32,000 nucleotides of DNA from Candidatus Saccharimonadota bacterium (GTDB taxonomy: Bacteria; Patescibacteriota; Gracilibacteria; BD1-5; UBA2023), in NCBI GenBank assembly GCA_963706795.1, contig OY970170.1:1140001-1172000 (forward strand), written 5' to 3'. Positions within the stretch are counted from its first letter, which is position 1, and every line of letters starts with the position of its first letter. A program made the translations under genes and the position numbers. This document shows, piece by piece, positions 2,277 to 32,000 of the stretch. The notes beneath the pieces are model-generated. The model searched no databases, was not told the DNA's origin, and worked only from the letters and a program-made list of their open reading frames with translations.

Positions 2277-2753
2277 TTATTCCCCATACATATTCCAACT
2301 CAAACTTCGCTCGCCGGTGGGACCAATAATCTTTTGGGTGATCACACGGATATTGCTCCCTGATGAGCTCACTGCAGTTGAGAAAAATGCCTGATAGATT
2401 GATTTTCCACCTCCAGTTTGTGTATCCGTTCCTGTACCAGAATATGTTTGAAGCGTGATCCCCGTAAATGTCAGTCACGTATCATAGCTACCAGTTGCGC
2501 ACGAGAGATTATTCGATCCAAAATTGATCGCAACAGGTGTAGCTACCACGATTGATTTGATATATCAAAATGGCAATGAACCAATACATGATCGCACACT
2601 GAGTTCGATTTCCTCGGCTTCTTTATCAGATTTAGTACGGTCTCATTGTCGCGTTGCTGACGAGAGCAAAAGGAAGGCTCAGACTATGACAATTGAGACA
2701 ATAGTGGCTGCGACGAGTACTTCAATAAGAGTGAAACCAGAGCGATTTTGCAT
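2277..2753 (-). CDS. Type IV pilin-like / pseudopilin protein (prepilin N-terminal cleavage-methylation motif)
   Basis: This is a 158-aa ORF with 4 in-frame TGAs, so it is invisible in the standard-code track. The N-terminus MQNRSG|[18 protein letters not shown][G]AFLLL has the classic G/F…E5 class III signal. The stop is TAA 2277-2279. Confidence 0.75.
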
Positions 2754-2830
2754 GCAAATATCATAGCTTCAGACACTTCTTTGCCAAGCGATTCTTGAAA
2801 AACTCTCTTTTTCCGATACTCTGCCCACCT

Positions 2831-6511: not shown

Positions 6512-9499
6512 ATGCACGAAGCATATAAAAAAGCCTACGACCATCTCAATGCCAAGCAAAAAGAGGCGGTCGATACGATCTATGGTTCTGTCATGGTGGT
6601 TGCCGGACCTGGTACAGGGAAGACTCAGGTTCTCTCAGCGCGTGCATGTCGCATCCTCGAACTCACTGATGCTCGGCCGGATAATATTTTGATCACGACC
6701 TTTACCGAAGCCGGTGTTATCGCACTCAAAAAACGCCTCTCTGATTTTTTAGGAGCTGAGAGCTATCGTATTAAAGTTACAACCCTTCATGCCTTTGCAA
6801 AGGATGTCATTGATCGTTTTCCTGAGGCTTTTTTGCAGTATCGTGCCTTTAGTGCTATCGATGAGCTTGATTCGTATTCGCTCTTTGAAGAAGTTCTCGC
6901 CGAAGGCAATTTCCCTGAGCTCAGACCTGTATATGAGCCGAGTTATTGGATACGTGATATTTCCAGTCGCATCAAAAAGCTCAGAGATGAAGCGATCACT
7001 CCAGAGATATTTATCGACCATATCGAACTCCTCCAAGAAGCCTACGCAGATGAGCTTTCGGAGATCAAACCAGAGCTCAAAAAATATGCTCAGACCGAAG
7101 AAAAACAAGCTCGGCATATCGCTAAGCTCCGAGAGCTCGCCGGTATCTACGAAGCCTACGAAGCCAAGAAAAAATCCCGAGGACTCTATGACTTCGCTGA
7201 TATGATTTTGCATGCTTCGAGAGAACTTGTAAATAATACGCTTCTCGCGACTGAGCTTGCTGAGCAGTACCAATTTATTATGGTTGATGAGTTCCAGGAC
7301 CTCAGCTCAGCACAAAACAATCTCCTCGAGGCAATTCTCGCCGTGCAGGACGCACCAAATATTATGACGGTGGGTGATGATGATCAGAGTATCTATCGTT
7401 TTCAGGGCGCGAATCTTGAGAATATGTTTCATTTCTCATCCAAATTCGCAGATACCAAAATCATCGTACTCGAAGAAAATTATCGCTCTGTAGAGCCTGT
7501 ACTCGCGCATGCACGTACTACGATTGATCTCAATGCTTCGCGCATCGTCAAGCTCATTCCCTCGCTTCAAAAGCCTCTGATTTCCCGCGTTGAACATCCA
7601 AGAGCCCGAGCGGAATACATCTCATATCCAACCGTAGTAGAGGAACAAATGGCGATTTTGGATCACATTAAATCGCTTGCCTCACTCGGAGTTCCTTTTG
7701 ATGAGATGGCGATTTTAGTTCGCACGAATCGCGAAGTCGGTGCATGGAGCAATCTCCTCGCAAAGGCAAATATTCCCTACGAAAGCCGCGAAAAATGAAA
7801 TCTCCTCGAAACCGAAGAAATGGCACTTTTCGAGCATATCCTCAGTGTTTCTGAGCTCGCAGTAATACCAGATAGATCCCTCATATTCTTGCTGAGGAGT
7901 GGCATATTTGATATCGATAAGGCTGATCTTTATCGCCTTATTCGTCAGCTTTCGGACCTCAATTTTAGCCGCAAGCAAAAATTCTCGCTTTTTGATCTAC
8001 TGATCCGTGAGGATATTCGTGATACGATTTTTGCAGATCGCGCAAAAGCATGGGCGGATATTGCGGACACTCTCATTGTACTGAGAGAAAAAGGTGATCT
8101 CATTCTCGCAACGCGCATCCAATCAATTATTGAGACATTTAAATTGACGGAATTTATTCGCAGTAGGGCGGGCGTAACGGGGCTTCGTAATTTTTATTCG
8201 ATCCTGTCATTTATTAAGGACAAAATTGCCCAACGATCGATCAGTGATCTTGCCGACCTCTTTGTCATTTGGGAACGCATGCGATCGTATGGGATTTCAC
8301 TCTCGGGTGATGCATTTCTTGCTGGTGGACTTGCAGGGGTTAAAATCTATACAGCACATCAATCCAAGGGGCTTGAGTTCGAGGCAGTATTTGTTCCATG
8401 AGTACTTGATGGCGTGTGGGGTGGACGTCGCAATATTGATAAACTCAGATTGCCTGAGACGATTACATATCGCACCGACACTACAAAATTCGACGAAATC
8501 GAAGAAGAACGTCGACTCTTCTTTGTGGCGATTACTCGTGCGAAGTACGAGCTCATAGTCTCGTTTTCGGAGAGTGAAAATGGACGAGCAAAAATCCCAT
8601 CGCAATTTGTGACCGAATGCGGCAATATTCCAACTCGTAAAGAGAGTGCTTCTATTCAGGATCTCGAAAAGATGCTCCTCTTGAGCACAACTCAGGCGAC
8701 TGTCTCATATGTGCCTGGACTTTCGGATAGTGAGATCGGATTTATTAAAGAAAAGCTCCAATCCTATCGACTTTCTGCGAGCGATCTGAGCAAATTTTTG
8801 ACTGACCCTATGCTCTTTTTGGAGGAATCTATTTTTCGTTATCCATTCGAAGACACATCGCGCACAATTTTTGGAAAGGTCTACCACAAGGCACTCGAAG
8901 AATTCTTCCTTACTTGGAAAAAAGAAGGTCGCAAACCGACGAAAGAGTCACTTGTTACGCTCTTTACTCGACTCATGGCCCGTGAAGTTTTGCCACCTGA
9001 ATACCTTGATGAAGAAATGCGACGTTGAACCGAATGACTTGCTGGTTGGTATGATGCACAACCATCTGATGCCAAGCTCCCACTCGAACTTGAGTACAGT
9101 TTTTCGGCACGAAATATCCATTTTGCAGGCATTCCCCTCACTGGAAAGATCGACCGAATAGATGAGATCGAAGAATGACTCCTACGTGTCACGGACTACA
9201 AAACTGGTCGAATACGCAGTGAGAATGAGATGAAGTGACTCACAGAATCTGGTGATAACAAGTATTTCCGACAGCTTCTTTTTTATAAGCTCCTGATTGA
9301 TTCTGATCCAAAACTCAGTGCCAAGTATGAAGTTCGTGATCTTGTCATCGATTTTGTCGAATGAAAAAATGGCATCTATCGAGCCACTTCCATGACATTT
9401 ACCGAGGAAGACGAAGAGAATCTCAAAAAAGAGATCCAAACTGTCTGGGGACAGATCATGGATATCGAGTTCTGGAAGGCAAAATTTGCAGCTAAATAG
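6512..9499 (+). CDS. UvrD/PcrA-type superfamily 1 helicase fused to a C-terminal PD-(D/E)XK (RecB/AddA-like) nuclease domain
   Basis: This 995-aa protein joins 6512..7798, 7820..8401, 8414..9028 and the tail to TAG 9497-9499 across 7 in-frame TGAs (7796, 8399, 9026, 9035, 9176, 9236, 9362). It has Walker A AGPGTGKT, DEFQD and VGDDDQSIYRFQGA motifs. The nuclease-like tail reads GKIDRIDEIEE[G]LLRVTDYKTG…YFRQLLFYKLL. Confidence 0.9.
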
Positions 9500-15264: not shown

Positions 15265-16035
15265 TTAGAAACCGTTAATTGGGAATGGAACGTTCGTCGT
15301 GTCGTTATTTTTGAGATTAGTTGTAGCACCTCCTGGCCCGATGAGCGAAACTGGACATGTGCCGTTACATGTTCCGTACTTGTCATCAAAGTCACCACTG
15401 ATTTTAGTAATCGGACCCTTCTGATCGTCGAGAATAGTGGCTGCAAGATTGAATGCCGTTGCAGTATTTCCACCTGTATTCCAAGCTGCTGGAAGTGCTG
15501 ACTTAGCATAGACAGCATAGACGTAGCGACCGATACCAAAATCTGAGAATACCTGTGATGATCCAACCTTAATATCTTTAAGTCCTGGATCCATGAGATC
15601 GAGTGAGAGTGAAGACTTTGGAAGAACGGTTGTATCCATAACTCCCTTCGCTCCGAGTTGGTTTGTTGGCGTTACTACGTCCATAACCATTCCACCACCA
15701 ATCGAGCTTGCTGCAGTTACACCAGTGATATTGTCACCAGATTTAGTAACCGTGATACCATTTTTGAGTGCAGCAGGAACCGCAGAATTATATCCCCAAA
15801 GATTAGTCGTCGCGCTATATACTGTCGGCATTGGAAGATACTGCTTGTCCTGACGATAGAGTTGAAGAGCATTTTCGATGGCTGCAAGATTCTCAACACG
15901 TTTTGAGTTTTTAGCCTTGTCCGTAGCTCCGGAGAAGCTCGTATAGGCAACCGTAGAGATGATTGCGAGAATAGTAATGACAACGAGAAGTTCTACGAGA
16001 GAAAATCCTCGCGAGGAGCGAATAGATGACATCAT
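15265..16035 (-). CDS. Type IV pilin (second pilin gene)
   Basis: It has the prepilin motif [10 protein letters not shown]|[21 protein letters not shown]. It is 256 aa from ATG 16035; in-frame alternatives are 16032 and 16056. It has no in-frame TGA and stops at TAA. Confidence 0.85.
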
Positions 16036-16098
16036 GGGGAATAATGAATTACGCACAGTAGTGTAGGGCTTTTTAGGGTGAAATCAAATGCACGCAAC

Positions 16099-16162: not shown

Positions 16163-16996
16163 TTAGTAAGGGAGATTTGTACCTTGTCCGTCAGTAATTG
16201 CAGTTGTACCACCTGCTGCTGTTGCAATAAGTCCTGCAACTTCGTTTCCATCTGCAAGTGATGAAGTATGTCCAAGAGCAATAGTTGATACCACACCTGC
16301 TGCACTTGTACCTGTAATAGTAAGTGAAAGACCATCACCACTTACAGAGGTAATAGTACCATCACCGTCAGTACCTGCGCCATTTACCCAAACAGTGTCT
16401 CCTTTCTTAAAGAGTCCAACTGCTGTCGATTGAAGCCCAGTAACTGTAAAGCTACCTGCAATTCCAGTTCCACCAGCAACTGTGTAAGCAACTGCGGTTC
16501 GATTATTGTAGTTGCCTTTTACTGATGCAACTCCATTCGCATTTGTTCCTGCAGGTTCAAGCTTAGCGGCTACTTGAAAAATTCCATTTGCTCTAGTCGA
16601 TGAGCCCATGCGATATTCTGAACCAAGTGGATCCTTAAAACTTGTTGCATCAAGGCCAAGAACTGTATAGTTAGGAACACCTGCATTGTAGTCAGCAGTT
16701 GTTGAGTCTGCACCACCTACTTGTGCTGTTGTAAGTGCAAGTTTATTATTCGTGACCGCACTGTTAACAGTTGAAATAAGTGAAATTCCTTCTGTTGATT
16801 TTGTCGTAACTGCAGTTGTGAGTGATCGGAGATCAGCCGTTCGCTTCGAGTCACGGCTCTGTCCAGAATATCCCTGGAGTGAGAGGAATCCGATTGTTCC
16901 GAGGATTGCGAGGATCGTGATAACTACGATAAGCTCGACGAGGGTGAAACCCTTATTATTAGTAGAGGCAGAAGCCTGTGTTGTTTGTGAAACCAT
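16163..16996 (-). CDS. Type IV pilin (probable major pilin)
   Basis: This 277-aa ORF starts MVSQTTQASASTNNKG|[27 protein letters not shown]. The C-terminal part is Thr/Gly/Ala-rich. It has its own terminator, no in-frame TGA, and is first in the minus-strand string. Confidence 0.88.
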   Translation of the reverse strand: MVSQTTQASASTNNKGFTLVELIVVITILAILGTIGFLSLQGYSGQSRDSKRTADLRSLTTAVTTKSTEGISLISTVNSAVTNNKLALTTAQVGGADSTTADYNAGVPNYTVLGLDATSFKDPLGSEYRMGSSTRANGIFQVAAKLEPAGTNANGVASVKGNYNNRTAVAYTVAGGTGIAGSFTVTGLQSTAVGLFKKGDTVWVNGAGTDGDGTITSVSGDGLSLTITGTSAAGVVSTIALGHTSSLADGNEVAGLIATAAGGTTAITDGQGTNLPY

Positions 16997-17293
16997 AGAA
17001 AATGGTTATGGAATTAGAAGCGTTCGCTGGGCGAACTAAAATGAATCAAAACACAAGCTTCGCGTGATGTCAAATTTTCATGACACTCCGCTCTGCCTCG
17101 TGTCTCGAATTATGATAGACTATTTTTTGAAAAGTAAAATTCATTAATCGAATATTAATTTTTGAACATGTTTTTAAATTTTGTCTTGACTTGTGTGTGA
17201 GTTCGATTGGTGATTCGCGAATTTGCGGATATAAATATGCATCAGTAATTTTACTATTAGGCTGATCAATCCAAAGAAGCAAGAGGTCAGAAT

Positions 17294-18589
17294 TTGCTCC
17301 ACAAAAGCAAGTATACTATAGTACATACAGTAGATCGTAATGTTCCACGGAATTTGCTACAAAAAATAACATCCCAAAAGGATTTTCTTGAGCGATCAGT
17401 AAGCACAGACCTGGGTGATATCGTAGCGTATACGAATAGTCTCTTTGACTTTGCCATTGAGATGAAAGCGTCAGATATACATATCGAACCAATCAAGGAT
17501 TTTGTGAATATCCGCTTCCGAGCCAGCGGTGATTTTATTTTTGTGGACAAAATTTCGCACGAAGAATACGCAAAGCTCATCTCCCGTCTCAAGATCCTCG
17601 CAAATCTCCGTATCGACGAAAAATATCGCCCTCAAGACGGTAAGATCGCATACAGCTCAGAACAACACAACGAACTCATCGACATCCGTGTGAGTATTTT
17701 GCCACTCGTTGAGTGAGAAAAGGTCGTTATGCGTGTACTTCGTCAGGATACATCGCTTCTCTCGCTCGATAAGCTCGACCTCCTCGATGTAAATCTTGAG
17801 AAGATTAAAAAGAGTCTCGCGAGCCGCTATGGGATCATCCTCGTTGCTGGTCCGACGGGTTCGGGTAAGTCGACGACGCTCTTCTCTATGCTCAAGTCAT
17901 TTAATCCGCTTGAGTTTAATATCTCAACGCTTGAGGATCCTGTTGAATACAATATTCCATTTATCAATCAGAGTCAGGTAAAACCACAGATCGGTTTTGA
18001 CTTTGCGGCGGGTCTAAGATCGCTTGTACGTCAGGATCCTGATATCATCATGGTCTGAGAAATCCGCGACAAAGAAACCGCCATGCTCGCTATCGAAGCC
18101 GCCCTCACGGGTCACTTGGTGCTCTCAACTATCCATACCAACTCCGCTGCGGGTACGATTCAGCGACTTATTAATATGGGAATCGAACCATTTCTGATAT
18201 CGTCAGCTGTAAAGATGATTATCTCGCAGCGTCTCGTGAAGCGTCTCTGTCCGCATTGTCAGACTGCTCATCATATAACGGATGCGAGCACTCGTGAGCG
18301 TATACAAGAGGAGCTCAATGGTATCGTTGATGAAAGCGTCGACGAACTCGAATTTCACAGACCAAAAGGATGTGAAAAATGCGACAATACTGGCTATATC
18401 GGCCGTATCGGTGTCCATGAAGTACTCACCATGCAAGAAGAACTCAATCCACTCGTACTCAATAAGGCTTCAGTGCAAGAAATCGATCGAAAGGCCCGTG
18501 AACTCGGGATGATCAATATTATCCAGGATGCACTCATTAAATCAGTAACCGGTAAGACTTCTATAGAAGAAGCGCTGCAACTCATCTAA
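17294..18589 (+). CDS. pilB: Type IV pilus assembly ATPase (GspE/PilB family), short N-terminus
   Basis: This joins 17294..17716, 17729..18058 and 18083..18589 across TGAs that encode the conserved Gly in …LPLVE[G]EKVVMRVL and …DPDIIMV[G]EIRD. It has Walker [11 protein letters not shown] and a tetracysteine CPHC…CEKC. The only in-frame start upstream of the domain is TTG 17294, preceded by AAGAGG, so the start is uncertain. Confidence 0.9.
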
Positions 18590-18592
18590 CTC

Positions 18593-20569
18593 ATGATCAA
18601 GGAGATCTTACGTACGCTCTTTAAAATCCACTCGTCACCTGCTGATAAGGTGACGGATTTTAGTGATGCGTACGACTGGATCATTACGTATAAAAAGGCT
18701 CGGGAATACGACACAGCCATCATGGCTGCGCGAGAGCTTCTCCTCAAGATCAAATCAGGGATTACGTATTTTACGAGCGCCGAAAAAAAGATCACGGTGC
18801 TTGCTTCGTCTAATATTGAGAGCATCGCAAAGGCTGCCAAGAGCAAAGGAAGGACCGTCGAACGTCATCTCAAGCATCTCCATACTTGGGAAACTCAGGT
18901 CCGCAAGCTCATCGAAACCTGTGAAGAACTCCGCATCAAAAAACAAGAAAAAGACGAAGAACTCCGCATCCATGCACAGGTTATGGCGGAGATTGCTGTG
19001 ATTAACGGGCATATTACCAAAAAAGAGTTCCCTCAGGCACTGCATTTAGCAAAGAAGCTTGCAGCAGCGCACTACACATCAAAGGAAGCGACGGATACGC
19101 TCATCAAAACACAAAAACTCTTTGATAGTAAAATCAATAAAAAAGAAGAAAGTCTCAAGGGTACGCAACGCAGACTTGAGAGATTTTTCCGTGAATCTGG
19201 TATTAAAAATGGAGCCGAAGCAGCTGAGAAAACAAATGTTGCTCCAAAAAATGGATTCAAAGAAAAATTTCGCGCGTTGTTTGATCAGATATCGCTCAAA
19301 CAACGAGAACACCGCGAGTATCTCAAGCGCCAAAAGGCACTCCGCACCATTGAGCAACTCTTAGTTGAGTCTGGTTCGATTACCAAAATTACAGACGAAG
19401 AGGGGAATGAAGAGCTCTTCTCGATCATGGAAAATGGTCTTACGAAGGACATCAATAACTTTAGTATCGATGGGTACAACTTCTTTGGAAAAATTATCGG
19501 TAAGGACAAGATCGTAGGTGACACTTTTGGTTTTCATCGTGATGGCACACGAACAGTGTTCTATTTTGGCGATGCTACGGGACACGGAGTACAGGCAGGG
19601 TTTACGGTCTCGCTTCTCACGAAAATTTTCTTTGAATACGCAAAGAAGGTAAAGAACTTTGTAGAACTCTTCAAGACACTCAATAACGAACTCAAGGCAA
19701 AGCTCAAGGGTCGTGTATTTGTGACGGGAGTATTTATGGAACATGATTCGATGGCTGGAACGCTCAAATTTATTGGAGCTGGCCACGATCCGATGTATAT
19801 CTACCACGCCAAAACCCGCGAAGTAGAAAAAATCATCCCAGGAGGTCTCGCACTTGGAGTTCGCAATATCAGTAATGTTGGCTCGATCAAGGTCCGTGAC
19901 ATGATCCTCGAAGATGGCGATATCCTTGTGGGATATACCGACGGTATTATCGAAGCTCGCAATGCTCAAAATGAGCTCTATGGTCTCACTCGCCTCGAAA
20001 ATGCGCTTCGTGCCAAAGGCAAAGAATCCGAGGGCGACATCAACCGTCTCTACGATCTGCTCTATAAGGACGTAAAGGAATTCCAGGGAAATACTCTCTT
20101 TTTGGATGACGTTTCGTTTTTTATTTTTAAGCGTGATTCTTCACGAGATTTGATCACTGAGAAGGCTGAGCTCGATAAGCTGCTCGAAGATCTCGATATG
20201 TCTCAGCGAACGGTCAAGGTTGACTACAAAGGCAAAACCCGAGCCGAAGTTGCAGAACTCATGCAAAAAGAACGTCACGCAGCTGAGCTCAAAGCACGCC
20301 TCGCCAATCTTGATCAGCTCTACAAAATCTGAGAATATCCTCGCCTCAAACAAGAGATCACACAGTGCTACAAACAAGGATTTGTCCATGAACGAATGAA
20401 GTTCTTCCTCGAAAAAATCATGAAGAACGAAGACAAAACCAAGCTCACCAAGCTCGAAGACAGAATCCAGAAAAAATACGAAATGCTGCAGGAACTCTGC
20501 GACAAATGAGAATATGGTATAGTGATCCGAGAGACGATCGACGTCCTTTATAAGAATGGTAATATCTAG
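18593..20569 (+). CDS. SpoIIE/RsbU-like PP2C-family Ser/Thr phosphatase with long helical N- and C-terminal extensions
   Basis: This 658-aa protein extends track ORF 18593..20332 through TGAs at 20330 and 20507 to TAG 20567-20569. The phosphatase motifs are intact: GDTFGF, VFYFGDATGHGVQAG, GAGHDPMYIY, LVGYTDGIIEARN and LFLDDVSFFIFKR. About 300 N-terminal residues are Lys/Glu-rich and helical with no TM segment. Confidence 0.8.
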
Positions 20570-20571
20570 TT

Positions 20572-21804
20572 ATGTTTGAGCGCAAAGCCAAATTCATCCG
20601 AGATGACGGAACATTCGATAACACGAAATTCCGAGATCTTTTAACGAAGGCTCGCAAAGCTGTAAATTCATGACAAAAAGGGAAGCGCTCATCACTCAAA
20701 AAGTCTGCTGGCCAGATCGTTATTGGCGGCATTAGTGACAAAGAAATCTGGGAATTTATTAATAAACTCTCCAACTTTTTAGGATCAGGAATCGACCTCA
20801 AAACAGCTTTTTCAATCGTACAAAAGCAGGTGAAGAATCCAAAACTTCAAAACATTGTCTCAGACATCAGATCCAACCTCGATCATGGTCTCTCGATCTC
20901 TGACACAATGAAGCAACATAGCAAATACTTCGATCCGCTCATTATTGCGCTCATCGAAGTAGGGGAGAAAACAGGTACGCTCCCGCGCGTTGTTGCTGAG
21001 CTCGAGTGAACGCTCCTCGAAAATATCGAAATCAAAGCCAAGATTAAGGGTGCGATGATCTATCCAGTGATTCTCTTCTCGCTCTCGATATTGATGGTAG
21101 TCTTCATGCTCGTCTTTATCCTGCCAAAGATCACAGAATCCTTCAAAAAAACTGGTGTTGAAGTCCCTGGATTGACGCAATTTATGATCAATATGTCCGA
21201 TTTTATTATCGGGAATTACATTTTGATTATTGGAGGGATTGTCGCGAGCGCCATTGGCTTTATTTTACTGAAGCGTACATATATCTGACAGATTATTTTT
21301 GGTCATATTGCGCTCAGGATTCCGGTGTTTGGGTTCATTACGAAACAGATGAATATCATTCTCTTCATTAATTCGCTTCACCTGCTCTTGGATTCAGGAG
21401 TGCTGATGCTTGAGGCGCTCGAGACTTCTGCAAATGTAGTACCAAATATGCACTTTAAAAAGGATATTATTCGCATCAAAAACGAAGTAGAAACCGGTAT
21501 CAAGCTCTCTGTCGCAATGGGTCTCTCACTCGAAAGCCGCAAAGATTCATCTGTATTCTCCAATCCGTATTTTCCCGAAGACATGGTCCACATGGTGAAT
21601 GTAGGAGAAGAAACTGGAACTATTGGATCAAGCATCCTCAAGGTTGGTCAAAACTATCAGAAGGCGCTTCGGCGATATATTTCTAATATCATGACTGCTC
21701 TCGAACCGCTCATTATCGTGTTTGTTGGATTTATGGTTGGAACCATTGTCCTCGCTATCATGCTCCCATTTTTCAATCTCGGAAAAGTCGCCAAAAAGCT
21801 CTAA
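20572..21804 (+). CDS. pilC: Type IV pilus platform protein (GspF/PilC family)
   Basis: This 410-aa protein starts at ATG 20572, 2 nt after the phosphatase stop. It crosses 3 in-frame TGAs and joins track ORFs 21055..21288 and 21325..21804. It has two GspF-type repeats (…FDPLIIALIEVGEKTGTLP… and …FPEDMVHMVNVGEETGTIG…) and TM helices. Confidence 0.88.
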
Positions 21805-21837: not shown

Positions 21838-22926
21838 ATGATGGAAAATACTCTCATCCCAGAATACGGGATTCGCGATGCACTTCTTGGAGTGATTACC
21901 GACAACAAAGGATCGGACTTTTATTACACAGTCGGAACTTTTCCTGCGGTTAAGATATCAGGTGAGATTATTCTCATTGATGAAGAAATGGAGATCATCA
22001 CACCCGAAGACGCTGAGTCATTCGCAAAGTCACTGATGACCAAAGAGCAGCATGAGCAGCTTTTGAGGACAAAGAACCTGGACTTTTCTTTTATGTTTCA
22101 GGAGTTTCGATTTCGTGGAAATATTTCGTTCCAGATGGGGTATTACATGGTAGTTTTACGTTTGCTTTCGCAGACAATTCCATCGCTTCAGGATCTTAAG
22201 CTTCCTTTTATTTATGAAGAAATCACTCGTGTAGGACAAGGGCTCGTCCTCGTGACAGGGCCAACGGGTTCTGGTAAGTCAACGACGCTTGCGGCTATGA
22301 TCAATGAGATCAATACAACTCAGGCGAAGCATCTCATCACGATCGAGGATCCGATCGAGTACATCCACACTCACAAAAAGTCTATTGTGGAACAAAAAGA
22401 AATCGGACGCGATGTCCCTGACTATGGTACTGCACTTATCGGAGCCATGCGTCAAAATCCTCAAGTAATTCTCTTTGGAGAAATGCGAAATACGGTCGAA
22501 ATTGAAATGGCCCTCAAGCTTGCAGAAACCTGACATCTTGTTTTCTCGACACTTCATACTCGAAGCGCCTACCAGACGATTTCTCGTGTGATTGATGCGT
22601 TTCCTTCTGATCAGCAAAATCAGGTGCGTCTCCAGCTAGCTGATACGCTCATTGGAGTATTCTCTCAGCGTCTTCTCAAAAAATCTGACGGCTCTGGAAT
22701 GCGCCTTGCTAAGGAAATCTTGACCAAGAATACCGCGGTTTCTAATCTCATTCGTGAAAATCAGCTCCACCAGATCCCATCAGTCATGCAGACCTCAAAA
22801 CGTGAAGGAATGCAGATCATCGAACAAGATATCATCGACTTCATCCACGAAGGCGACATCACCATCGACGAAGGTCTCAAATACGCGAATAATCCGAAAT
22901 ACATCAAGGATAATATTAATGCGTAG
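21838..22926 (+). CDS. pilT: Twitching-motility (pilus retraction) ATPase
   Basis: This joins 21838..22533 and 22588..22926 across the TGA that encodes Gly in the conserved LKLAET[G]HLVFSTLHT. It has Walker [11 protein letters not shown] and ITIEDPIEY. It is 362 aa and stops at TAG. Confidence 0.9.
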
Positions 22927-22966: not shown

Positions 22967-22998
22967 ACACGTGTTCGATATACTTCTCGGACACGTGT
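22967..22998. promoter_or_regulatory. Two copies of the palindrome ACACGTGT(T), 24 bp apart, upstream of recJ (candidate operator)
   Basis: ACACGTGTT occurs at 22967-22975 and again at 22991-22999. Both copies lie between the pilT stop (22926) and the preferred recJ ATG (23013). Confidence 0.3.
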
Positions 22999-24845: not shown

Positions 24846-24921
24846 GCGGGCGTAGCTCAATGGCTAGAGTCCCTGCCTTCCAAGCAGACTGTTATGGGTT
24901 CGAGTCCCATCGCCCGCTCCA
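24846..24921 (+). tRNA. tRNA-Gly (anticodon UCC)
   Basis: Cloverleaf read by hand: acceptor GCGGGCG/CGCCCGC, anticodon loop CUUCCAA, T-arm ATGGG-TTCGAGT-CCCAT, encoded CCA. Length is 76 nt. Confidence 0.9.
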
Positions 24922-24956
24922 TCGATTATCAAAGAAGGTCCTTTTGGACACAGACA

Positions 24957-25016
24957 GTAGAGGTTAGTGGTTCGATTTTAGTGGACATCCACTAGAGTGG
25001 AGTCACTAACCTCTAC
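24957..25016 (+). other. 60-nt extended hairpin between tRNA-Gly and tRNA-Ile (unknown structured element)
   Basis: An outer perfect 13-bp stem pairs GTAGAGGTTAGTG with CACTAACCTCTAC. An inner 6-bp stem pairs TAGTGG with CCACTA around an ACAT loop. The 9x9 internal region can pair largely with G:U wobbles. Confidence 0.4.
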
Positions 25017-25025
25017 GCGTTAAAT

Positions 25026-25102
25026 GGGTGCATAGCTCAGTTGGTTAGAGCGCGTCTCTGATAAGGACGAGGTCCGTGGTTCAACTCCACGTGCACCCAC
25101 CA
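25026..25102 (+). tRNA. tRNA-Ile (anticodon GAU)
   Basis: Acceptor GGGTGCA/TGCACCC, anticodon stem CGTCT/GGACG with loop CUGAUAA, T-arm CGTGG-TTCAACT-CCACG, encoded CCA. Length is 77 nt. Confidence 0.9.
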
Positions 25103-25156
25103 TTTCAAAATTAGATTCCCAAAAGAGTTAAGAGAAGTACAGTAACTCTTTTTATT

Positions 25157-25233
25157 CGGAGACTGGCGCAATTGGCTAGCGCACGTGCTTTGGGAGCACG
25201 GGGTTGTGGGTTCGAGTCCCACGTCTCCGACCA
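25157..25233 (+). tRNA. tRNA-Pro (anticodon UGG)
   Basis: Acceptor CGGAGAC/GTCTCCG, anticodon stem CGTGC/GCACG with loop UUUGGGA, T-arm GTGGG-TTCGAGT-CCCAC, encoded CCA. Length is 77 nt. Confidence 0.9.
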
Positions 25234-25353
25234 TTAAAAAATCATCGAGTCTCCATGTGGGGCGAGAACATGAGGTATGCACCGAAGCTTCGCAGAAGCG
25301 AAGGCGCATAGAAAGCCAACGATTTGGCTTTCGGCCGAGGGAGGCCCGAAGGG

Positions 25354-25375
25354 GAGTCCCACGTCTCCGACCATT
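25354..25375 (+). repeat. Direct repeat of the tRNA-Pro 3' end (copy of 25214-25235)
   Basis: The 22-nt sequence GAGTCCCACGTCTCCGACCATT (T-loop 3' part, T-stem, acceptor 3' strand, CCA and 2 more nt) recurs exactly 140 nt downstream. No matching 5' half or T-stem partner is present. Confidence 0.85.
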
Positions 25376-25380
25376 TGTTT

Positions 25381-25455
25381 GACGCTATCGTCTAGTGGTT
25401 AGGACAACGGGTTTTCATCCCGTAAGCCGGAGTTCAATTCTCCGTAGCGTTACCA
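25381..25455 (+). tRNA. tRNA-Glu (anticodon UUC)
   Basis: Acceptor GACGCTA/TAGCGTT (G:U at 1:72), anticodon stem ACGGG/CCCGT with loop UUUUCAU, T-arm CGGAG-TTCAATT-CTCCG, encoded CCA. Length is 75 nt. Confidence 0.88.
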
Positions 25456-25724: not shown

Positions 25725-27344
25725 ATGGTGAACTTGAAGAATGTAAAAATAGGTGTTCGACTTTCAGTCGGATTTGGGGTAGTAATTTCACTCTTGGCAG
25801 TGGTGATAATAAAAGCTGTCATGCTTTTAAATTCATCTAATGCTGCAAGTGATAATATCGTCGCTGCAGAAATAAATGCAGCTCTCGTGGAGGACTGGAG
25901 AAATCACGTTCTTCTTAACGGAGTTCGTACAGTGGGCAGAATTTTTTCAAATAGTCCAACATACGAAAAGCAGCTCGTAGATGATATGAACCGTACGATG
26001 CAGGAAGTTAATATCATTCAAGAAAAGCTTACCAAACTCACCGTTGAACCAGAAGCTAAGAAGCTAATGGAAAGTGTTGCTGCGAAGCGAAAACAAATAA
26101 TCGCCATTCGTGAACAAATCTTTAAAGCAAAAGCGAACGGCGAGAGTGCAGTTGTCCAAGAAATATTCGATTCGAAGTTTAAGCCAACTCTCTTGTCGTA
26201 CGAAGAGAGTATGCTGGAGGTTTCTAAATACTACCAGGATATAGTTGCAAAAACTTCACAATCAATGGACGATGAATTTCAGAAAGCGCTATATACGCTC
26301 ATAGGACTGGGTATAATTGCTAGTATCATCGGCATTGGTTTTGCAATAGGTATTATGCGAAGTATTACAAAACCACTCTATGAAGCTGTCAGAGTTGCAG
26401 ATGCTATCGCATCTGGAAATCTGACAGCACAGCACATCACGAATCATTCAAAAGATGAAACGGGGCAACTGCTGGCAAGCCTGGAAAAAATGAGGGAAAA
26501 TATTTCGGGTATTGTAGGAGGTATCCGCAGCGGTGTCATAAGTATCGTTGCTCAAACTCAAGAAATTGCTGAAGAGAGCTCAAATCTCTCGGCAAGGACT
26601 GAGGCACAGGCATCGGCTCTCCAACAAACTGCTGCCACTATGGAAGAACTCGCTTCCACCGTGCAGCAAAATGCAAACAATACGAACTTGACTGATAAGC
26701 AGATGGTACAAGTTTCTAAAATGGCTGAGCAAGGAAAGGGTTCGGTCGAAAAAGTAGTAGGGAGCATGGGGGAAATCAATGCAAGTTCACGGCAAATTGT
26801 GGACATTATCAGTATTATTGATGGCATTGCATTTCAAACCAATATTCTGGCGCTCAATGCTGCAGTAGAAGCAGCACGTGCTGGTGAACAAGGACGTGGC
26901 TTTGCCGTGGTGGCAACTGAAGTGCGCAATCTGGCTCATCGCAGTGCCGCTGCAGCAAAAGATATCAAAACACTCATTGATGATTCAGTAGCAAAAGTCG
27001 GGATGGGAATTGTCCAGGCTAATGCTGCAGGAGAAGATATGAACAAGATTGCCGCCGAAATCTCAAATGTTCAGAATATGATGGGAGGCATTTCTGATGC
27101 TACGCGGGAGCAAGAAATTGCCATTGATGCAGTCAAACTGGCTGTTAACTCAATGGACGATGGCACACAGCAAAACGCTGCCCTCGTCGAACAAACTGCT
27201 GCGGCAGCTGAAGCACTGAGGAGTGAAGCTGAAATATTAGCTAAGCTCGTTAGTCAATTTAAGGATGTTGAGCAAGTTGCAGCACCAAAGAAGAGTCAAC
27301 TACAGTACAAACCCACCAGACTACAACCTGTTTTAATAAAGTAG
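25725..27344 (+). CDS. Methyl-accepting chemotaxis protein (two TM helices, periplasmic helical sensor, HAMP, MCP signalling domain)
   Basis: This is a 539-aa uninterrupted ORF. TM1 is VGFGVVISLLAVVIIKAVMLL and TM2 is LIGLGIIASIIGIGFAIGIM. The HAMP-like segment is RSITKPLYEAVRVADAIASGNL…DETGQLLASL. The conserved signalling hairpin is …IDGIAFQTNILALNAAVEAARAGEQGRGFAVVATEVRNLAHRSA… The stop is TAG and there is no in-frame TGA. Confidence 0.93.
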   Translation: MVNLKNVKIGVRLSVGFGVVISLLAVVIIKAVMLLNSSNAASDNIVAAEINAALVEDWRNHVLLNGVRTVGRIFSNSPTYEKQLVDDMNRTMQEVNIIQEKLTKLTVEPEAKKLMESVAAKRKQIIAIREQIFKAKANGESAVVQEIFDSKFKPTLLSYEESMLEVSKYYQDIVAKTSQSMDDEFQKALYTLIGLGIIASIIGIGFAIGIMRSITKPLYEAVRVADAIASGNLTAQHITNHSKDETGQLLASLEKMRENISGIVGGIRSGVISIVAQTQEIAEESSNLSARTEAQASALQQTAATMEELASTVQQNANNTNLTDKQMVQVSKMAEQGKGSVEKVVGSMGEINASSRQIVDIISIIDGIAFQTNILALNAAVEAARAGEQGRGFAVVATEVRNLAHRSAAAAKDIKTLIDDSVAKVGMGIVQANAAGEDMNKIAAEISNVQNMMGGISDATREQEIAIDAVKLAVNSMDDGTQQNAALVEQTAAAAEALRSEAEILAKLVSQFKDVEQVAAPKKSQLQYKPTRLQPVLIK

Positions 27345-28501: not shown

Positions 28502-29059
28502 TTAAGCTACTTTATAGACATAGATTTTTTGATCGCGGCCGCATTCAATTATTTTATAGGGTTCGATTCACTGAATAAAAAAACTATTTGAATACAAGAG
28601 CGTTCATGGTTGGCACTCAGACTCAATTTTCTGCCATATTTTTAGCATGAGATGAGGGAGTAGGTATGCGTATGCAACATTTACTTCAGCTAAAGAAGCA
28701 TGGAAAAAGTCTTCATTTGAGACGCTGTAATTTCCTTGATATTCCGCCTTTTTTTTGAGTGCGAGATTGTACGGTCGCTTCGAATTTTCGTAGCCGATGA
28801 AATGGTTATTTGGATGCCTTTGGCTCATAGCATACAGAATTTTACCATCTCCGCAGCCAATATCTACAAATGTTTGTCACGGTCGCAGCTCGATATTTTG
28901 GAGAAGCACCTCGAGTTTTGAATCTGGTGTCATTACGAATGGCACTCAATAGCCCGCAAAGATCTGTCTGAATTCTCGGAATGCAAAATACAGCATCACA
29001 AGAACTACTGCACAAACAAATACGAGTGTAAATATGGCGAATACAAGCTGAATAGACAT
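28502..29059 (-). CDS. Membrane-anchored class I SAM-dependent methyltransferase (paralog 1)
   Basis: This 185-aa ORF has 4 in-frame TGAs. It has an N-terminal TM helix (MSIQLVFAIFTLVFVCAVVLVMLYFAF), then [G]VPFVMTP and motif I FVDIGCGDGKIL. It ends …QKIYVYKVA. Its stop is 1 nt before the start of paralog 2. Confidence 0.8.
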
Positions 29060-29148
29060 TCGATCGAGAAATGTAAGATTCCTTTTGTGCTCAGTTTGGT
29101 GTAAATAGTCTTTTTGTAAAGCAAAGCAGAATAGAGTGAATTTCGAAT

Positions 29149-29177
29149 AAAAAAACCGTAATGGTATTACGGTTTTT
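29149..29177. terminator. Terminator-like hairpin inside a divergent intergenic region
   Basis: AAAAACCGTAAT-GGT-ATTACGGTTTTT: a 12-bp stem with A/T-run flanks. It lies between the minus-strand methyltransferase start (29059) and the plus-strand gene start (29247). Confidence 0.5.
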
Positions 29178-29246
29178 AAAAAGGTAAATCGTCTTGTTCT
29201 TCTTCTACGATCTAGGTACAATACACTACGTAATCCTTCAATATTT

Positions 29247-29474
29247 ATGGCTCGCAATTCTACTCATTCTACTGAGGAATCTCAGGAAAATTCTCATAAA
29301 GGGAAAAGACACGGAAGACATCATACATATGTCGGTGTATTTATAGTGATTATCGGATGTCTTTTCCTTCTCGATAATTTTGGGTATCTGCCTCACGATA
29401 TGTGGTCAAAGTATTGGCCGATAGTGATTATCATCCTCGGACTTATGCGAATATTTCGTTCGCATAAAGAGTAA
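29247..29474 (+). CDS. Small two-TM membrane protein (LiaF-N/DUF5668-like), His/Lys-rich N-terminus
   Basis: The 75-aa ORF is MARNSTHSTEESQENSHKGKRHGRHHTYVGVFIVIIGCLFLLDNFGYLPHDMWSKYWPIVIIILGLMRIF. The pattern G..FLLDN.G.L…YWP…I.LG resembles the DUF5668/LiaF N-terminal region. The stop is TAA. Confidence 0.6.
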   Translation: MARNSTHSTEESQENSHKGKRHGRHHTYVGVFIVIIGCLFLLDNFGYLPHDMWSKYWPIVIIILGLMRIFRSHKE

Positions 29475-30090: not shown

Positions 30091-32000
30091 CTATTCAACT
30101 TCGTCAATGAATTTTTTGCGTACGTAGCCAGTTCCTTTTTGTGATCGGATTTCAACCCATTCTGAACCATTAAGACGGTCGAGGATAACGATGAGCTCGC
30201 CATGTTTGAGTGGGCTGAGTGATCGTACGATCGGAGAATCTCCATCTGGCTTTGAACGAATATTGAGGTATCGAGCTGCATTGACGCGTGCCCATGTAAC
30301 CTCGTAGTTGAGTTCGTGACCTTGTGCAAAGAGGTATGGATCAGTGCGGGCAATATCCGAATCCTGAAGCGTTCGGAGATAGTCGAGATAGACCCAACCA
30401 TCGACCCCGTCAAATGTTACATGCCCCCAAACTCCTTGTTCCCCAATGAGTTCAACACGGCTATTGCGTGGAAGTGTCGCGAGGAGATCGCCATCCATGC
30501 TTGGTGTCAAGCGAACATTGACCGAGTTTGCAGCGCTGATAAATCGTGCACCACCTTCAAATGTATAGTCTACTGGATTTGTACCATTGGTAGCAGTTGG
30601 AGTATCGACTGCGTCACCATTCTTTACAACATATCCAAGTCCTGGAGCATCAACTGCATGACCAATTGGAGTCTTTGGAACTGTAGGCTTTTTTATCGGA
30701 GTGGTTGGCTTAACTGTTGGCTTTGTCGGTCTAACAATTGGTTTTGTTGTACCCTTCACTGGAGTAGTTGGTGGGTATGGGGTTTTAATTGTTGGAGTTC
30801 CCATGTTACCGATTGCTCCTGTTCCGGTAGTGGTAGTACCGGTACCAGTAGTAGTTGTCCCTGTTCCCGTATTTACTGTAGGAGTAGAAGGTGTTGAAGG
30901 AAATCCAATGAAGATGCTTCCTCCTCCACTTCCACCACCTCCGCTTGATCCAAATGATCCGCCGCCCCCTCCACCAGATGAACCTCCATTACTTCCGCCA
31001 TTTGTGCTTGCTACTGCGAAGAGTGCGGTACCAACTGGAGTATCTGTAATGTTTCCTGCTGCATCAACTGAGTGTACAAATACGTAATAGGTATTTGTTG
31101 GATCTACACCAACAATCGCACCTGAATGACTTGTACCAACTGTTGATCCGCTCCAAATTGTTGTCGCAACAACATTTGAGCCCGTTCCTACATAAAATGT
31201 TGAAGTCGTCGTTTCGTTCGTTGTAAATGTGTAATAACCCGTTGTCACTCCTGCATTAGTAACTCCTGAGAAGCTCTGAGCACTAATTGCGGGTGCGAGT
31301 GCGTCCTGAGTAATTACCACGTTCGTTCCAGTTGATACATTACCTGCGAGGTCAGTTGCCCGAACTACAAAGGTTGTTCCTGTATTTGTAACGAGTGGGA
31401 GAGTGAGCGTATATGCTCCAGTACCACTTGCGATTGTAGAGACCATTCCTGAAGATGTCGCTGTGACTGTTGCTCCTGTCTCAGTCGTACCTGTGAGAAC
31501 GTATGTAAGTGCATTTGTAATTGCTCCCGTTGCCGAGACCGTAAAGCTTGGTGCAACCGAATCTTGAATTACCGCAATCGATCCAGTAAGGGTCGCCGAA
31601 GTGTCAGTGGCCGTTACGAGGAAATTATTTGTCACATTTGCTGTGAGTGGAAGCGTAACACTATATGCCCCCGTTCCAGATACGGTAGTCGAGGCTGATG
31701 CTGTACCGCTGACTGCAATATTTGCATTTGCCTTTGAAGTTCCTGAAATCGTAAATGTATTTGCGCTCGTCGTAATTGGTCCGACCTGCGTAATAGTGAG
31801 TGTGAGTGGAATTGGATCCTGAGTAATTACTACAGATCCCGTTCCTACATTGCCTGCAAGATCAGTTGCAGTGACCAGAAGCGTATTTGCTGCACCAATC
31901 GAGAGTGGTACAACGAGGCTAAATGCTCCTGAACCATCTGCAACTCCACCGACTACTGCGCCAGAACCTCCAGAGATTACAATGCTCGCAAAGGCTTCTG
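30091..32000 (-). CDS. Large surface protein: tandem Ig-like repeats, low-complexity linker, two C-terminal SH3b-like domains (5' end beyond the right edge)
   Basis: The frame is open from the window edge (codons in register from 31998) to TAG 30091-30093, so at least 636 aa. A roughly 85-aa repeat recurs at least 3 times (…SGTGAY(S/T)(V/L)TLPL…ATDLAGN…V(V/I)(I)TQD…P). It is followed by an FN3/Ig-like unit, then a Gly/Ser, TGTGTTTT and Pro/Thr/Lys linker. Two SH3b-like units follow (…VNVRLTPSMDGDLLATLPRNSRVELIGEQGVWGHVTFDGVDGWVYLDYL and …LNIRSKPDGDSPIVRSLSPLKHGELIVILDRLNGSEWVEIRSQKGTGYVRKKFI). The GTG 'start' at 31635 in the track is internal. Confidence 0.8.
   Translation of the reverse strand, partial: EAFASIVISGGSGAVVGGVADGSGAFSLVVPLSIGAANTLLVTATDLAGNVGTGSVVITQDPIPLTLTITQVGPITTSANTFTISGTSKANANIAVSGTASASTTVSGTGAYSVTLPLTANVTNNFLVTATDTSATLTGSIAVIQDSVAPSFTVSATGAITNALTYVLTGTTETGATVTATSSGMVSTIASGTGAYTLTLPLVTNTGTTFVVRATDLAGNVSTGTNVVITQDALAPAISAQSFSGVTNAGVTTGYYTFTTNETTTSTFYVGTGSNVVATTIWSGSTVGTSHSGAIVGVDPTNTYYVFVHSVDAAGNITDTPVGTALFAVASTNGGSNGGSSGGGGGGSFGSSGGGGSGGGSIFIGFPSTPSTPTVNTGTGTTTTGTGTTTTGTGAIGNMGTPTIKTPYPPTTPVKGTTKPIVRPTKPTVKPTTPIKKPTVPKTPIGHAVDAPGLGYVVKNGDAVDTPTATNGTNPVDYTFEGGARFISAANSVNVRLTPSMDGDLLATLPRNSRVELIGEQGVWGHVTFDGVDGWVYLDYLRTLQDSDIARTDPYLFAQGHELNYEVTWARVNAARYLNIRSKPDGDSPIVRSLSPLKHGELIVILDRLNGSEWVEIRSQKGTGYVRKKFIDEVE
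30661..31008 (-). repeat. Low-complexity coding repeats within the surface protein
   Basis: The segment encodes TNGGSNGGSSGGGGGGSFGSSGGGGSGGGS, then TGTGTTTTGTGTTTTGTG, then TPYPPTTPVKGTTKPIVRPTKPTVKPTTPIKKPTVPKTP. The DNA shows short tandem units such as GGTACCGGTACCAGTAGTAGTTGT-type repeats. Confidence 0.8.

Follow-up and report, generated by a model that had tools for sequence, protein, structure and literature searches.

The stretch of DNA analysed here (the window) comprises 32,000 nucleotides (nt) of an assembly labelled Candidatus Saccharimonadota bacterium (NCBI GenBank GCA_963706795.1, contig OY970170.1, positions 1,140,001 to 1,172,000 of the forward strand; GTDB lineage Patescibacteriota, Gracilibacteria, BD1-5, UBA2023). 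It carries a compact set of type IV pilus (T4P) genes in the order pilB, X, pilC and pilT, where X denotes a gene for a phosphatase of 658 amino acids (aa) that lies between the genes of the extension ATPase and the inner-membrane platform protein (Table 1). In Pfam searches PilB matches the T2SSE domain alone (E=2e-117), the MshEN N-terminal domain not being present, while PilC matches T2SSF (PF00482, E=3e-49) and PilT matches T2SSE (E=9e-38). Read with genetic code 25, the four genes are separated by gaps of 3, 2 and 33 nt, so that the coordinates and spacing given for X in an initial annotation of this DNA are exact; its description of X as closely spaced with both neighbours, in what looks like a pilB-X-pilC-pilT unit, is supported. 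The source contig has a length of 1,267,896 bp.

Table 1. Features of the pilus gene cluster in the window (code 25; positions are those of the window)
Feature	Position	Strand	Description
Pilin-like genes	15265-16056, 16163-16996	-	PF07963 N_methyl, E=1e-8 and 4e-8; divergent from pilB
Two overlapping sigma-70-like promoter candidates	17112..17156	+	Divergent intergenic region upstream of pilB; 9/12 consensus matches
pilB, short-type T4P extension ATPase	17294..18589	+	At most 431 aa from the first TTG; PF00437 at residues 38-428
X, phosphatase	18593..20569	+	658 aa; in-frame TGA read as Gly at aa 580 and 639
X N-module	18593..19462	+	aa 1-290; helical scaffold
X PPM (SpoIIE/RsbU-type) catalytic domain	19463..20152	+	aa 291-520; PF07228, fold and invariant residues
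X C-module	20153..20569	+	aa 521-658; short linker, then four-helix module
pilC, T4P inner-membrane platform protein	20572..21804	+	410 aa; three in-frame TGA; two T2SSF repeats
pilT, retraction-type ATPase	21838..22926	+	362 aa
Terminator-like hairpin	22967..22998	+	12-bp stem, then a T-run; 41 nt past the pilT stop

The source genome reads UGA as glycine (code 25), because in-frame TGA codons fall on conserved glycines and because homologues of X translated by databases with code 4 show tryptophan in invariant glycine columns. The two TGA codons of X (aa 580 and 639) encode the glycine of two conserved GEY motifs. In PilB, where in-frame TGA occurs at aa 141 and 255, and in PilT the codon falls on universally conserved glycines (VE-G-EK and MV-G-EIRD in the GEK and VGEIRD motifs of PilB; ET-G-HL in the ETGHL motif of PilT). 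A reading with translation table 11 was rejected, since it fragments pilB, X, pilC and pilT, all of which code 25 restores with TGA on conserved glycine; under table 11 pilB is broken into three open reading frames (ORFs) and X covers only 18593-20332. The length of 658 aa first proposed for X thus stands under code 25 and does not under table 11, where the product stops at 20332 after 579 aa. Gracilibacteria are also called GN02, BD1-5 or Altimarinota. Named homologues are deposited as 'Candidatus Gracilibacteria', 'uncultured bacterium (gcode 4)' or 'Candidatus Altimarinota', and these names, together with the genes restored by code 25, show the earlier assignment of the window to a recoded Gracilibacteria-type organism to be right.

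The central part of X is a member of the SpoIIE family PF07228 by profile, residues and fold, and is an orthologue of neither SpoIIE nor RssB. The hidden Markov model (HMM) search proposed as a check gives a significant, full-length match between residues 318-514 and positions 2-191 of the 192 in the profile (E=6e-39, 134.4 bits against a cutoff of 25). The motifs GDTFGF, FGDATGHG, GYTDGI and LDDVSF begin at aa 309, 325, 447 and 504, respectively, and supply the metal-binding aspartates D310, D327 (within GDATGHG), D450 and D505/D506. Conservation was assessed in two sets, 28 database homologues and 44 distinct proteins taken from genome loci and re-translated with code 25. All the metal-binding aspartates that the initial annotation had listed as kept are present and invariant in both; the invariant positions are D310, the run G326-D327-A-T-G-H-G332, H398, R424, D443, D450, G451, E454, D505, D506 and R514, in a family whose overall identity ranges from 27 to 70% across 44 genomes. 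D310, D327 and D450 align with the GD, DGxGxG and SDG motifs of SpoIIE in a comparison with PDB sequences, among which the best matches are the RsbU domain of Rv1364c (3ke6) and Bacillus subtilis SpoIIE (5mqh, 3t91, 5ucg). Databases label homologues of X as 'PP2C family protein-serine/threonine phosphatase' or 'RsbU'.

A full AlphaFold2 model was made of the closest full-length homologue of X (P0002, 59% identity to X; mean pLDDT 80). It has three parts, a helical N-module (24-201), an alpha/beta core (284-514) and a helical C-module (551-656), with pLDDT values of about 88-92 over most of the core. Foldseek matches the core with probability 1.0 to 3ke6, 5ucg, 6k4e, 3f79 and 3w40. Rv1364c-RsbU (1e-13), SpoIIE, the SiaA PP2C domain (target TM-score 0.75, rmsd 2.3 Å), RssB and RsbX are matched at E=1e-13 to 1e-10; farther matches include tPphA, PstP and the type VI secretion system (T6SS) phosphatase PppA (6jkv, E=9e-8). 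X scores only 23 bits against the model for SpoIIE proper (NCBIfam TIGR02865, cutoff 490.8) and does not have the ten-transmembrane N-terminal domain of that protein. Against the RssB equivalog model (NF045505) it scores 22 bits for a cutoff of 700, with no Pfam match to Response_reg; the RssB type combines a receiver with a degenerate PP2C domain, whereas the catalytic aspartates of X are intact. The absence of a transmembrane (TM) segment from X, also claimed initially, agrees with a maximum 19-residue hydropathy of 1.03, as against 3.15 for PilC. On the best reading of these sequence and model data, X would be a soluble Ser/Thr phosphatase that is metal-dependent and competent for catalysis, from the bacterial RsbU/SpoIIE branch of the PPM family.

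The catalytic domain is flanked by two Lys/Glu-rich modules in which the initial annotation had recognised no motif. Lysine and glutamate make up 24% of the N-terminal 290 aa and 27% of the C-terminal 138 aa, and both parts are predicted to be all-helical, in line with that description. The N-module begins with a short hydrophobic/basic helix (consensus MF followed by basic residues) and continues with helices at 24-35, 39-71, 76-142, 146-159 and 164-201, after which a linker helix (223-259) leads into the PPM domain. Residues 1-285 of the X protein of the window itself were modelled separately, with pLDDT values of 88-98 for aa 21-200. A Foldseek search of the PDB with this model finds nothing significant (best E=0.15, TM-score at most 0.3); the weak list consists mostly of TPR and 14-3-3 hairpin proteins, with TPR matches at E=0.15-0.9. 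X has no Pfam match to TPR, and an N-extended relative (P0220) has weak, sub-threshold matches to TPR_14 and TPR_19. In the structural check proposed for the extensions, both are predicted to be helical and the N-module is modelled confidently; no significant structural relative of the N-module is found. A profile of the N-module run against a set of 5.8 billion proteins scored two hits, Lys/Glu-rich low-complexity candidates having swamped the word prefilter.

The C-module folds in the P0002 model into helices at 551-580, 583-595, 601-638 and 642-656. It carries the two GEY motifs and a conserved C-terminus ending in KNGNI, and in the set of 44 sequences E581, K586, G596, L606, L635, K638, V644 and G656 are invariant. 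The mean frequency of the majority residue in that set is 0.62 for the C-module and 0.61 for the PPM domain, and is lowest (0.44) for the N-module. The alignment shows the flanking helical modules to be under purifying selection, the C-module being conserved as strongly as the active site. A profile of the C-module searched against 1.84 billion representative proteins gives 63 matches, and in nearly all of them the module stands at the extreme C-terminus. Because every match is an X-family protein or a TGA-truncated fragment of one, the C-module is, among the representatives searched, private to the X family.

The position of X between pilB and pilC is a constant feature of its family. In four divergent homologues (32-45% identity) used as anchors, X lies between a T2SSE gene and a T2SSF gene in all four. 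Their outer flanks differ: one locus has an amidase gene there, two have hisS, and the last has genes without annotation. One locus has pilT on the strand of X and two have it on the other strand, while none was found in the last. A scan of species representatives, one genome per GTDB species, gave 72 loci, or 76 with four earlier look-ups, among which about 47 (L005-L044, L064, L071, L072 and L001-L004) carry the C-module by tblastn with code 25 and are taken as X-family loci. Wherever the contig extends far enough, each of these loci encodes PilB directly upstream and PilC directly downstream; two of them come from closed genomes, CP017714.1 (HOT-871) and CP060226.1. The gap between pilB and X has a median of 11 nt, and that between X and pilC one of 12 nt. 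Look-ups anchored on PilB instead return PilB, a SpoIIE-domain protein and PilC in 3/3 cases, and the same order is seen in two recoded metagenome loci. The surroundings differ: in the near clade pilT follows immediately and in the same orientation, in the far clade it lies 1-3 kb further downstream and is read from the other strand, and the outer flanks (amidase, hisS, IMPDH, pilT on either strand) are rearranged among X loci, which argues that selection acts on the pilB-X-pilC trio itself. Operon-level membership of X in the core T4P machinery, in the sense of co-localisation with pilB and pilC across the lineage and independently of the flanks, is thereby borne out. X is no one-off insertion, given the X-family loci and the PilB-anchored look-ups, and the HMM match, the junction in relatives and the aligned aspartates, any of whose absence would have counted against the initial annotation, are all present.

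In the far clade, a Glu/Lys/Asn-rich low-complexity protein of 262-394 aa is encoded directly upstream of pilB (L002 4853-5641, L003 4472-5656, L078 4953-5990 and L080 5009-5884). It has one TM helix and a conserved (E/D)(L/I)FGNYK(S/G)(D/S)F-like motif, has no Pfam match and is not found at the pilB-upstream position in the window. It may be another lineage-specific component of the pilus operon.

Outside the family the junction looks different. A metagenome scan anchored on PilB yielded 80 loci, 76 of standard code (PilB 40-49% identical) and four recoded. X occurs in 0/76 of the standard-code loci; pilB is followed there by pilC in 39 cases and by pilT in 23. The two recoded loci whose PilB is 58-60% identical contain X. 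A third (L156, 2806-7442; PilB identity 47%), whose coding density is 0.76 and reaches 0.93 when it is read with code 25, has a short PilB followed directly by PilC and no X, and the fourth (L100) has neither X nor pilC within 2 kb. X is accordingly absent both from standard-code PilB loci and from L156, and for this reason it is a lineage-specific insertion, made at an ancestral pilB-pilC junction and later fixed in one sub-lineage. X is specific to this one sub-lineage and is no trait of recoded bacteria, or of the candidate phyla radiation (CPR), at large; L156 is recoded and without X. Upstream of pilB, L156 also encodes two unannotated membrane proteins (303 and 391 aa), which could be PilN/O-like equivalents.

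The PilB proteins linked to X match PF00437 only; among the top 120 relatives most are of about 400-413 aa, and the shorter ones look like fragments. A typical outgroup PilB has 582 aa and combines MshEN with T2SSE. Outgroup loci that match only the PPM domain encode TM-HAMP-SpoIIE sensor phosphatases, use code 11, have no adjoining pilB or pilC and are labelled Peregrinibacteria or Peribacteria, SAR324 and Bdellovibrionales. One of them (L050, 5566-7865) encodes a 398-aa TM-anchored SpoIIE-domain protein whose gene meets that of a PilT-like ATPase, read from the other strand, tail-to-tail; it may represent an independent association of a phosphatase with such an ATPase in a Peregrinibacteria-like genome.

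Variants of the X protein itself add to this picture. In one locus (L077, 5001-8366; Logan SRR23592402 contig 4588; protein P0228) X and PilC are fused in frame into a protein of 1121 aa, the alignment to X ending at nt 7178, that to PilC starting at nt 7182 and the frame containing no stop codon; pilB does not adjoin the fusion. As a single observation, the fusion would lend Rosetta-stone-type support to a physical relationship between X and PilC. The long matches of the C-module profile were considered as possible PilB-X fusions, and this was ruled out: they are N-extended X proteins, one tandem X-X and the one X-PilC fusion. The tandem protein (P0199, 1108 aa) is a duplication of X read through as one ORF. 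Several of the other variants, which are P0220, P0212, P0235, P0207 and the gene at the X position of L080 (7277-9643, 788 aa), have N-modules extended by 130-560 aa.

The promoter-like sites near pilB are not enriched over shuffled sequences. The hairpin after pilT is the strongest terminator-like structure in the region and a candidate for the end of the operon, though promoter and terminator counts overall are not convincingly above shuffles. The positions of promoter and hairpin candidates are weakly consistent with pilB-X-pilC-pilT being one unit.

The window contains further genes related to pili and others that are not. The two pilin-like genes divergent from pilB (Table 1) each have a class III signal or N-methylation motif; a 277-aa pilin-like product is rich in Gly, Thr and Ala, and a third pilin-like gene with the N-terminal methylation motif lies at 2277-2828 (-). 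A 539-aa methyl-accepting chemotaxis protein (4HB_MCP_1, HAMP and MCPsignal) is encoded at 25725-27344 (+), just after a tRNA cluster. The window has neither che nor flagellar genes. Its gene has zero in-frame TGA codons, and most genes of such size in this genome carry several; the protein could have been acquired horizontally, or could supply sensory information to behaviour that relies on pili. The tRNA cluster at 24846-25455 (+) comprises four genes, Gly(tcc), Ile(gat), Pro(tgg) and Glu(ttc). Its tRNA-Gly is an ordinary GGA reader and not a UGA-reading tRNA with a UCA anticodon, so the UGA-reading tRNA-Gly must be encoded elsewhere. A MazF/PemK-type toxin of 113 aa (1657-1998, -) adjoins the gene of a DUF2130 coiled-coil protein (264-1616, +). 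Other Pfam assignments in the window are CysS, a sugar transferase, a UvrD-nuclease, Lgt, AMMECR1, tRNA-synt_1b (class I Trp/Tyr-type), ClpP, RecJ and methyltransferases, besides several unknowns.

The reading that we favour, and consider moderately probable, is that X is an active phosphatase serving as a dedicated T4P accessory subunit docked on the motor platform in one recoded lineage of Gracilibacteria. X would be co-expressed with pilB and pilC, and the private C-module, perhaps with a TPR-like N-module, would dock it to the cytoplasmic face of the PilC/PilB platform. The N-module and the linker helix would gate PPM activity by dimerisation or partner binding, as in RsbU, RsbP and SpoIIE. 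X would then dephosphorylate a pilus component, candidates being PilB, PilC, PilT, a pilin or a small adaptor, and so switch the motor between an assembly-competent state and an idle or retracting one; the opposing kinase would be encoded elsewhere. These features suggest that the attachment pili of the X lineage are controlled by protein dephosphorylation. A more specific form of the proposal, which we offer tentatively and regard as rather unlikely, has stoichiometric X clamped to PilC by its C-module, the N-module reading the state of PilB or PilT or contact with a host, and the PPM domain resetting a phospho-switch of the motor. If it were true, a phosphorylation-gated cycle of extension and retraction would take the place of MshEN/c-di-GMP and PilM-type inputs and could be central to episymbiotic or predatory attachment.

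Several observations weigh against a docked and active pilus phosphatase. No kinase, STAS or FHA domain is found by Pfam in the ORFs of the window, the scan leaving out 28502-29434 (-) and 30091-31635 (-), which agrees with the initial statement that the window holds no cognate kinase or STAS partner; nor is a kinase, STAS, FHA or other phospho-signalling partner present in the precomputed Pfam annotation of some 6-7 kb on either side of X in seven relatives. From spacing only we infer that X shares a transcript, and probably translational coupling, with pilB and pilC. The X-PilC fusion is seen in a single contig from a metagenome, and an error of assembly or sequencing could have produced it. 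Short PilB proteins also occur without X, in the recoded L156 and the standard-code L113 and L125, which means that X is no inherent requirement of the pilus machine. The same three loci weaken the idea that X compensates for the MshEN domain lost from PilB.

A different role for the same enzyme would be partner-switching, in which X acts on a small STAS- or DUF1987-like phosphoprotein encoded elsewhere and its place in the operon reflects co-expression only; the dephosphorylated adaptor, rather than X, would bind PilB or PilT, or else its target would be a sigma or anti-sigma factor that controls pilin expression. The nearest relatives in sequence and fold (Rv1364c RsbU, SpoIIE, RsbX, SiaA, RssB) all work in such or in adaptor circuits, and the nearest outgroup PPM domains are those of HAMP-SpoIIE sensor phosphatases. 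A local search for such a circuit, however, finds no STAS- or SiaC-type substrate and no GHKL kinase, and no RsbW-type kinase or SiaB/C-like gene, in the scanned ORFs of the window or in the flanks of the seven relatives. The outgroup HAMP-SpoIIE genes (L045-L050) likewise have no STAS or kinase gene beside them, their neighbours being LepA, SHMT, HtrA and others. Partner-switching also leaves unexplained why the family-private C-module is conserved at the level of the active site and why X is fused to PilC in one case, and we judge it improbable.

Just as improbable, in our estimation, is that X is mainly an architectural subunit of the platform whose PPM fold binds or senses, as in RssB, and which takes over the roles of the missing MshEN domain of PilB, of PilM-type proteins or of both. 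All X-associated PilB proteins do lack MshEN, which typical outgroup PilB proteins have, and Pfam annotation shows no PilM within about 6-7 kb in the seven relatives. The large helical modules of a protein-binding type, the X-PilC fusion and the presence of RssB among the fold matches would fit such a scaffold as well. Invariance of the catalytic aspartates and of GDATGHG in 44 genomes at 27-70% identity is nevertheless unexpected for a pseudo-enzyme; short PilB proteins without X are known from L156, L113 and L125, and PilM could lie elsewhere in the genomes. Reduced genomes also pack unrelated genes together, and the window has many short gaps and neighbours such as recJ and clpP, so X might be a housekeeping or stress phosphatase that has come to lie in the pil operon with no function in the pilus. 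This we regard as very improbable, given that all family loci examined have X between pilB and pilC amid outer flanks that are all rearranged, that X is absent wherever the boundary of the lineage is crossed and that an X-PilC fusion exists.

T4P are thought to be the main organelle of CPR bacteria (Patescibacteria) for host attachment, movement and DNA uptake. To our knowledge, the regulation of T4P in their reduced genomes is essentially undescribed. A phosphatase fixed between the genes of the motor ATPase and the platform offers a concrete and testable handle on it. As X is soluble, it should be expressible, and in vitro assays can measure what it dephosphorylates, how active it is and whether it binds PilB and PilC, with no need to culture the organism. 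The private C-module could in addition mark the pilus operon of this lineage in sequence data. If the favoured reading is correct, T4P would join the envelope machines (T6SS and the type III secretion system) that have a cluster-encoded switch of the PP2C type.

A search of the accessible literature found no description linking SpoIIE, PP2C or RsbU with pilB-pilC, nor any in Gracilibacteria. X shares with RsbU, RsbP and SpoIIE the catalytic fold, the set of metal-binding aspartates and the layout of an N-terminal helical regulatory region, a linker helix and a PPM core. It differs from them in its N-module, where none of the types RsbU N-domain, GAF, PAS, HAMP and receiver can be recognised, in the additional private C-module after the PPM domain, and in being part of a pilB-pilC operon with no STAS or RsbW-type kinase gene found nearby. 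The best structural superposition on the core of X is that of the PP2C domain of Pseudomonas aeruginosa SiaA (6k4e), at the TM-score and rmsd given above. SiaA is a SpoIIE-type phosphatase that exerts post-translational control over surface and aggregation behaviour. It is membrane-anchored, has a HAMP domain and acts on SiaC, and the kinase SiaB and the cyclase SiaD are encoded in the same operon. X, in contrast, is soluble, has other flanking modules and has pilus motor proteins as its operon partners. In the H1-T6SS of P. aeruginosa, PppA (of the PppA/PpkA/Fha1 pathway) is a cluster-encoded phosphatase of the PP2C fold that sets the assembly state of a nanomachine post-translationally. PppA is, however, a small eukaryotic-like PP2C outside the SpoIIE branch, and its partners are an FHA protein and a Hanks kinase that the cluster encodes; near X neither of these is found.

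T4P motility of Synechocystis sp. PCC 6803 involves the kinases SpkA, SpkB and SpkE, the RsbU-like Slr2031 and PilA1 phosphorylated at Ser59 (PMC7076178). It is a precedent in which T4P function can depend on such kinases, on an RsbU-like protein and on the phosphorylation of a pilin. Together with cluster-encoded PP2C switches such as PppA, it is the closest functional analogue of X. The genes of these regulators are scattered and lie outside the pilB-pilC core operon, and Slr2031 has no reported physical link to the motor, unlike the arrangement proposed for X; no homology between X and Slr2031 was shown outside the PPM domain. Accessory cytoplasmic proteins or domains that gate the extension ATPase are represented by MshEN with c-di-GMP and by PilZ-FimX-PilB of Xanthomonas (PMC8389850). 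X is a phosphatase, whereas these systems bind a second messenger, and no relationship in sequence or fold was found between them. X belongs to a known class of enzymes; its arrangement of domains and its constant position within a core pilus operon are new.

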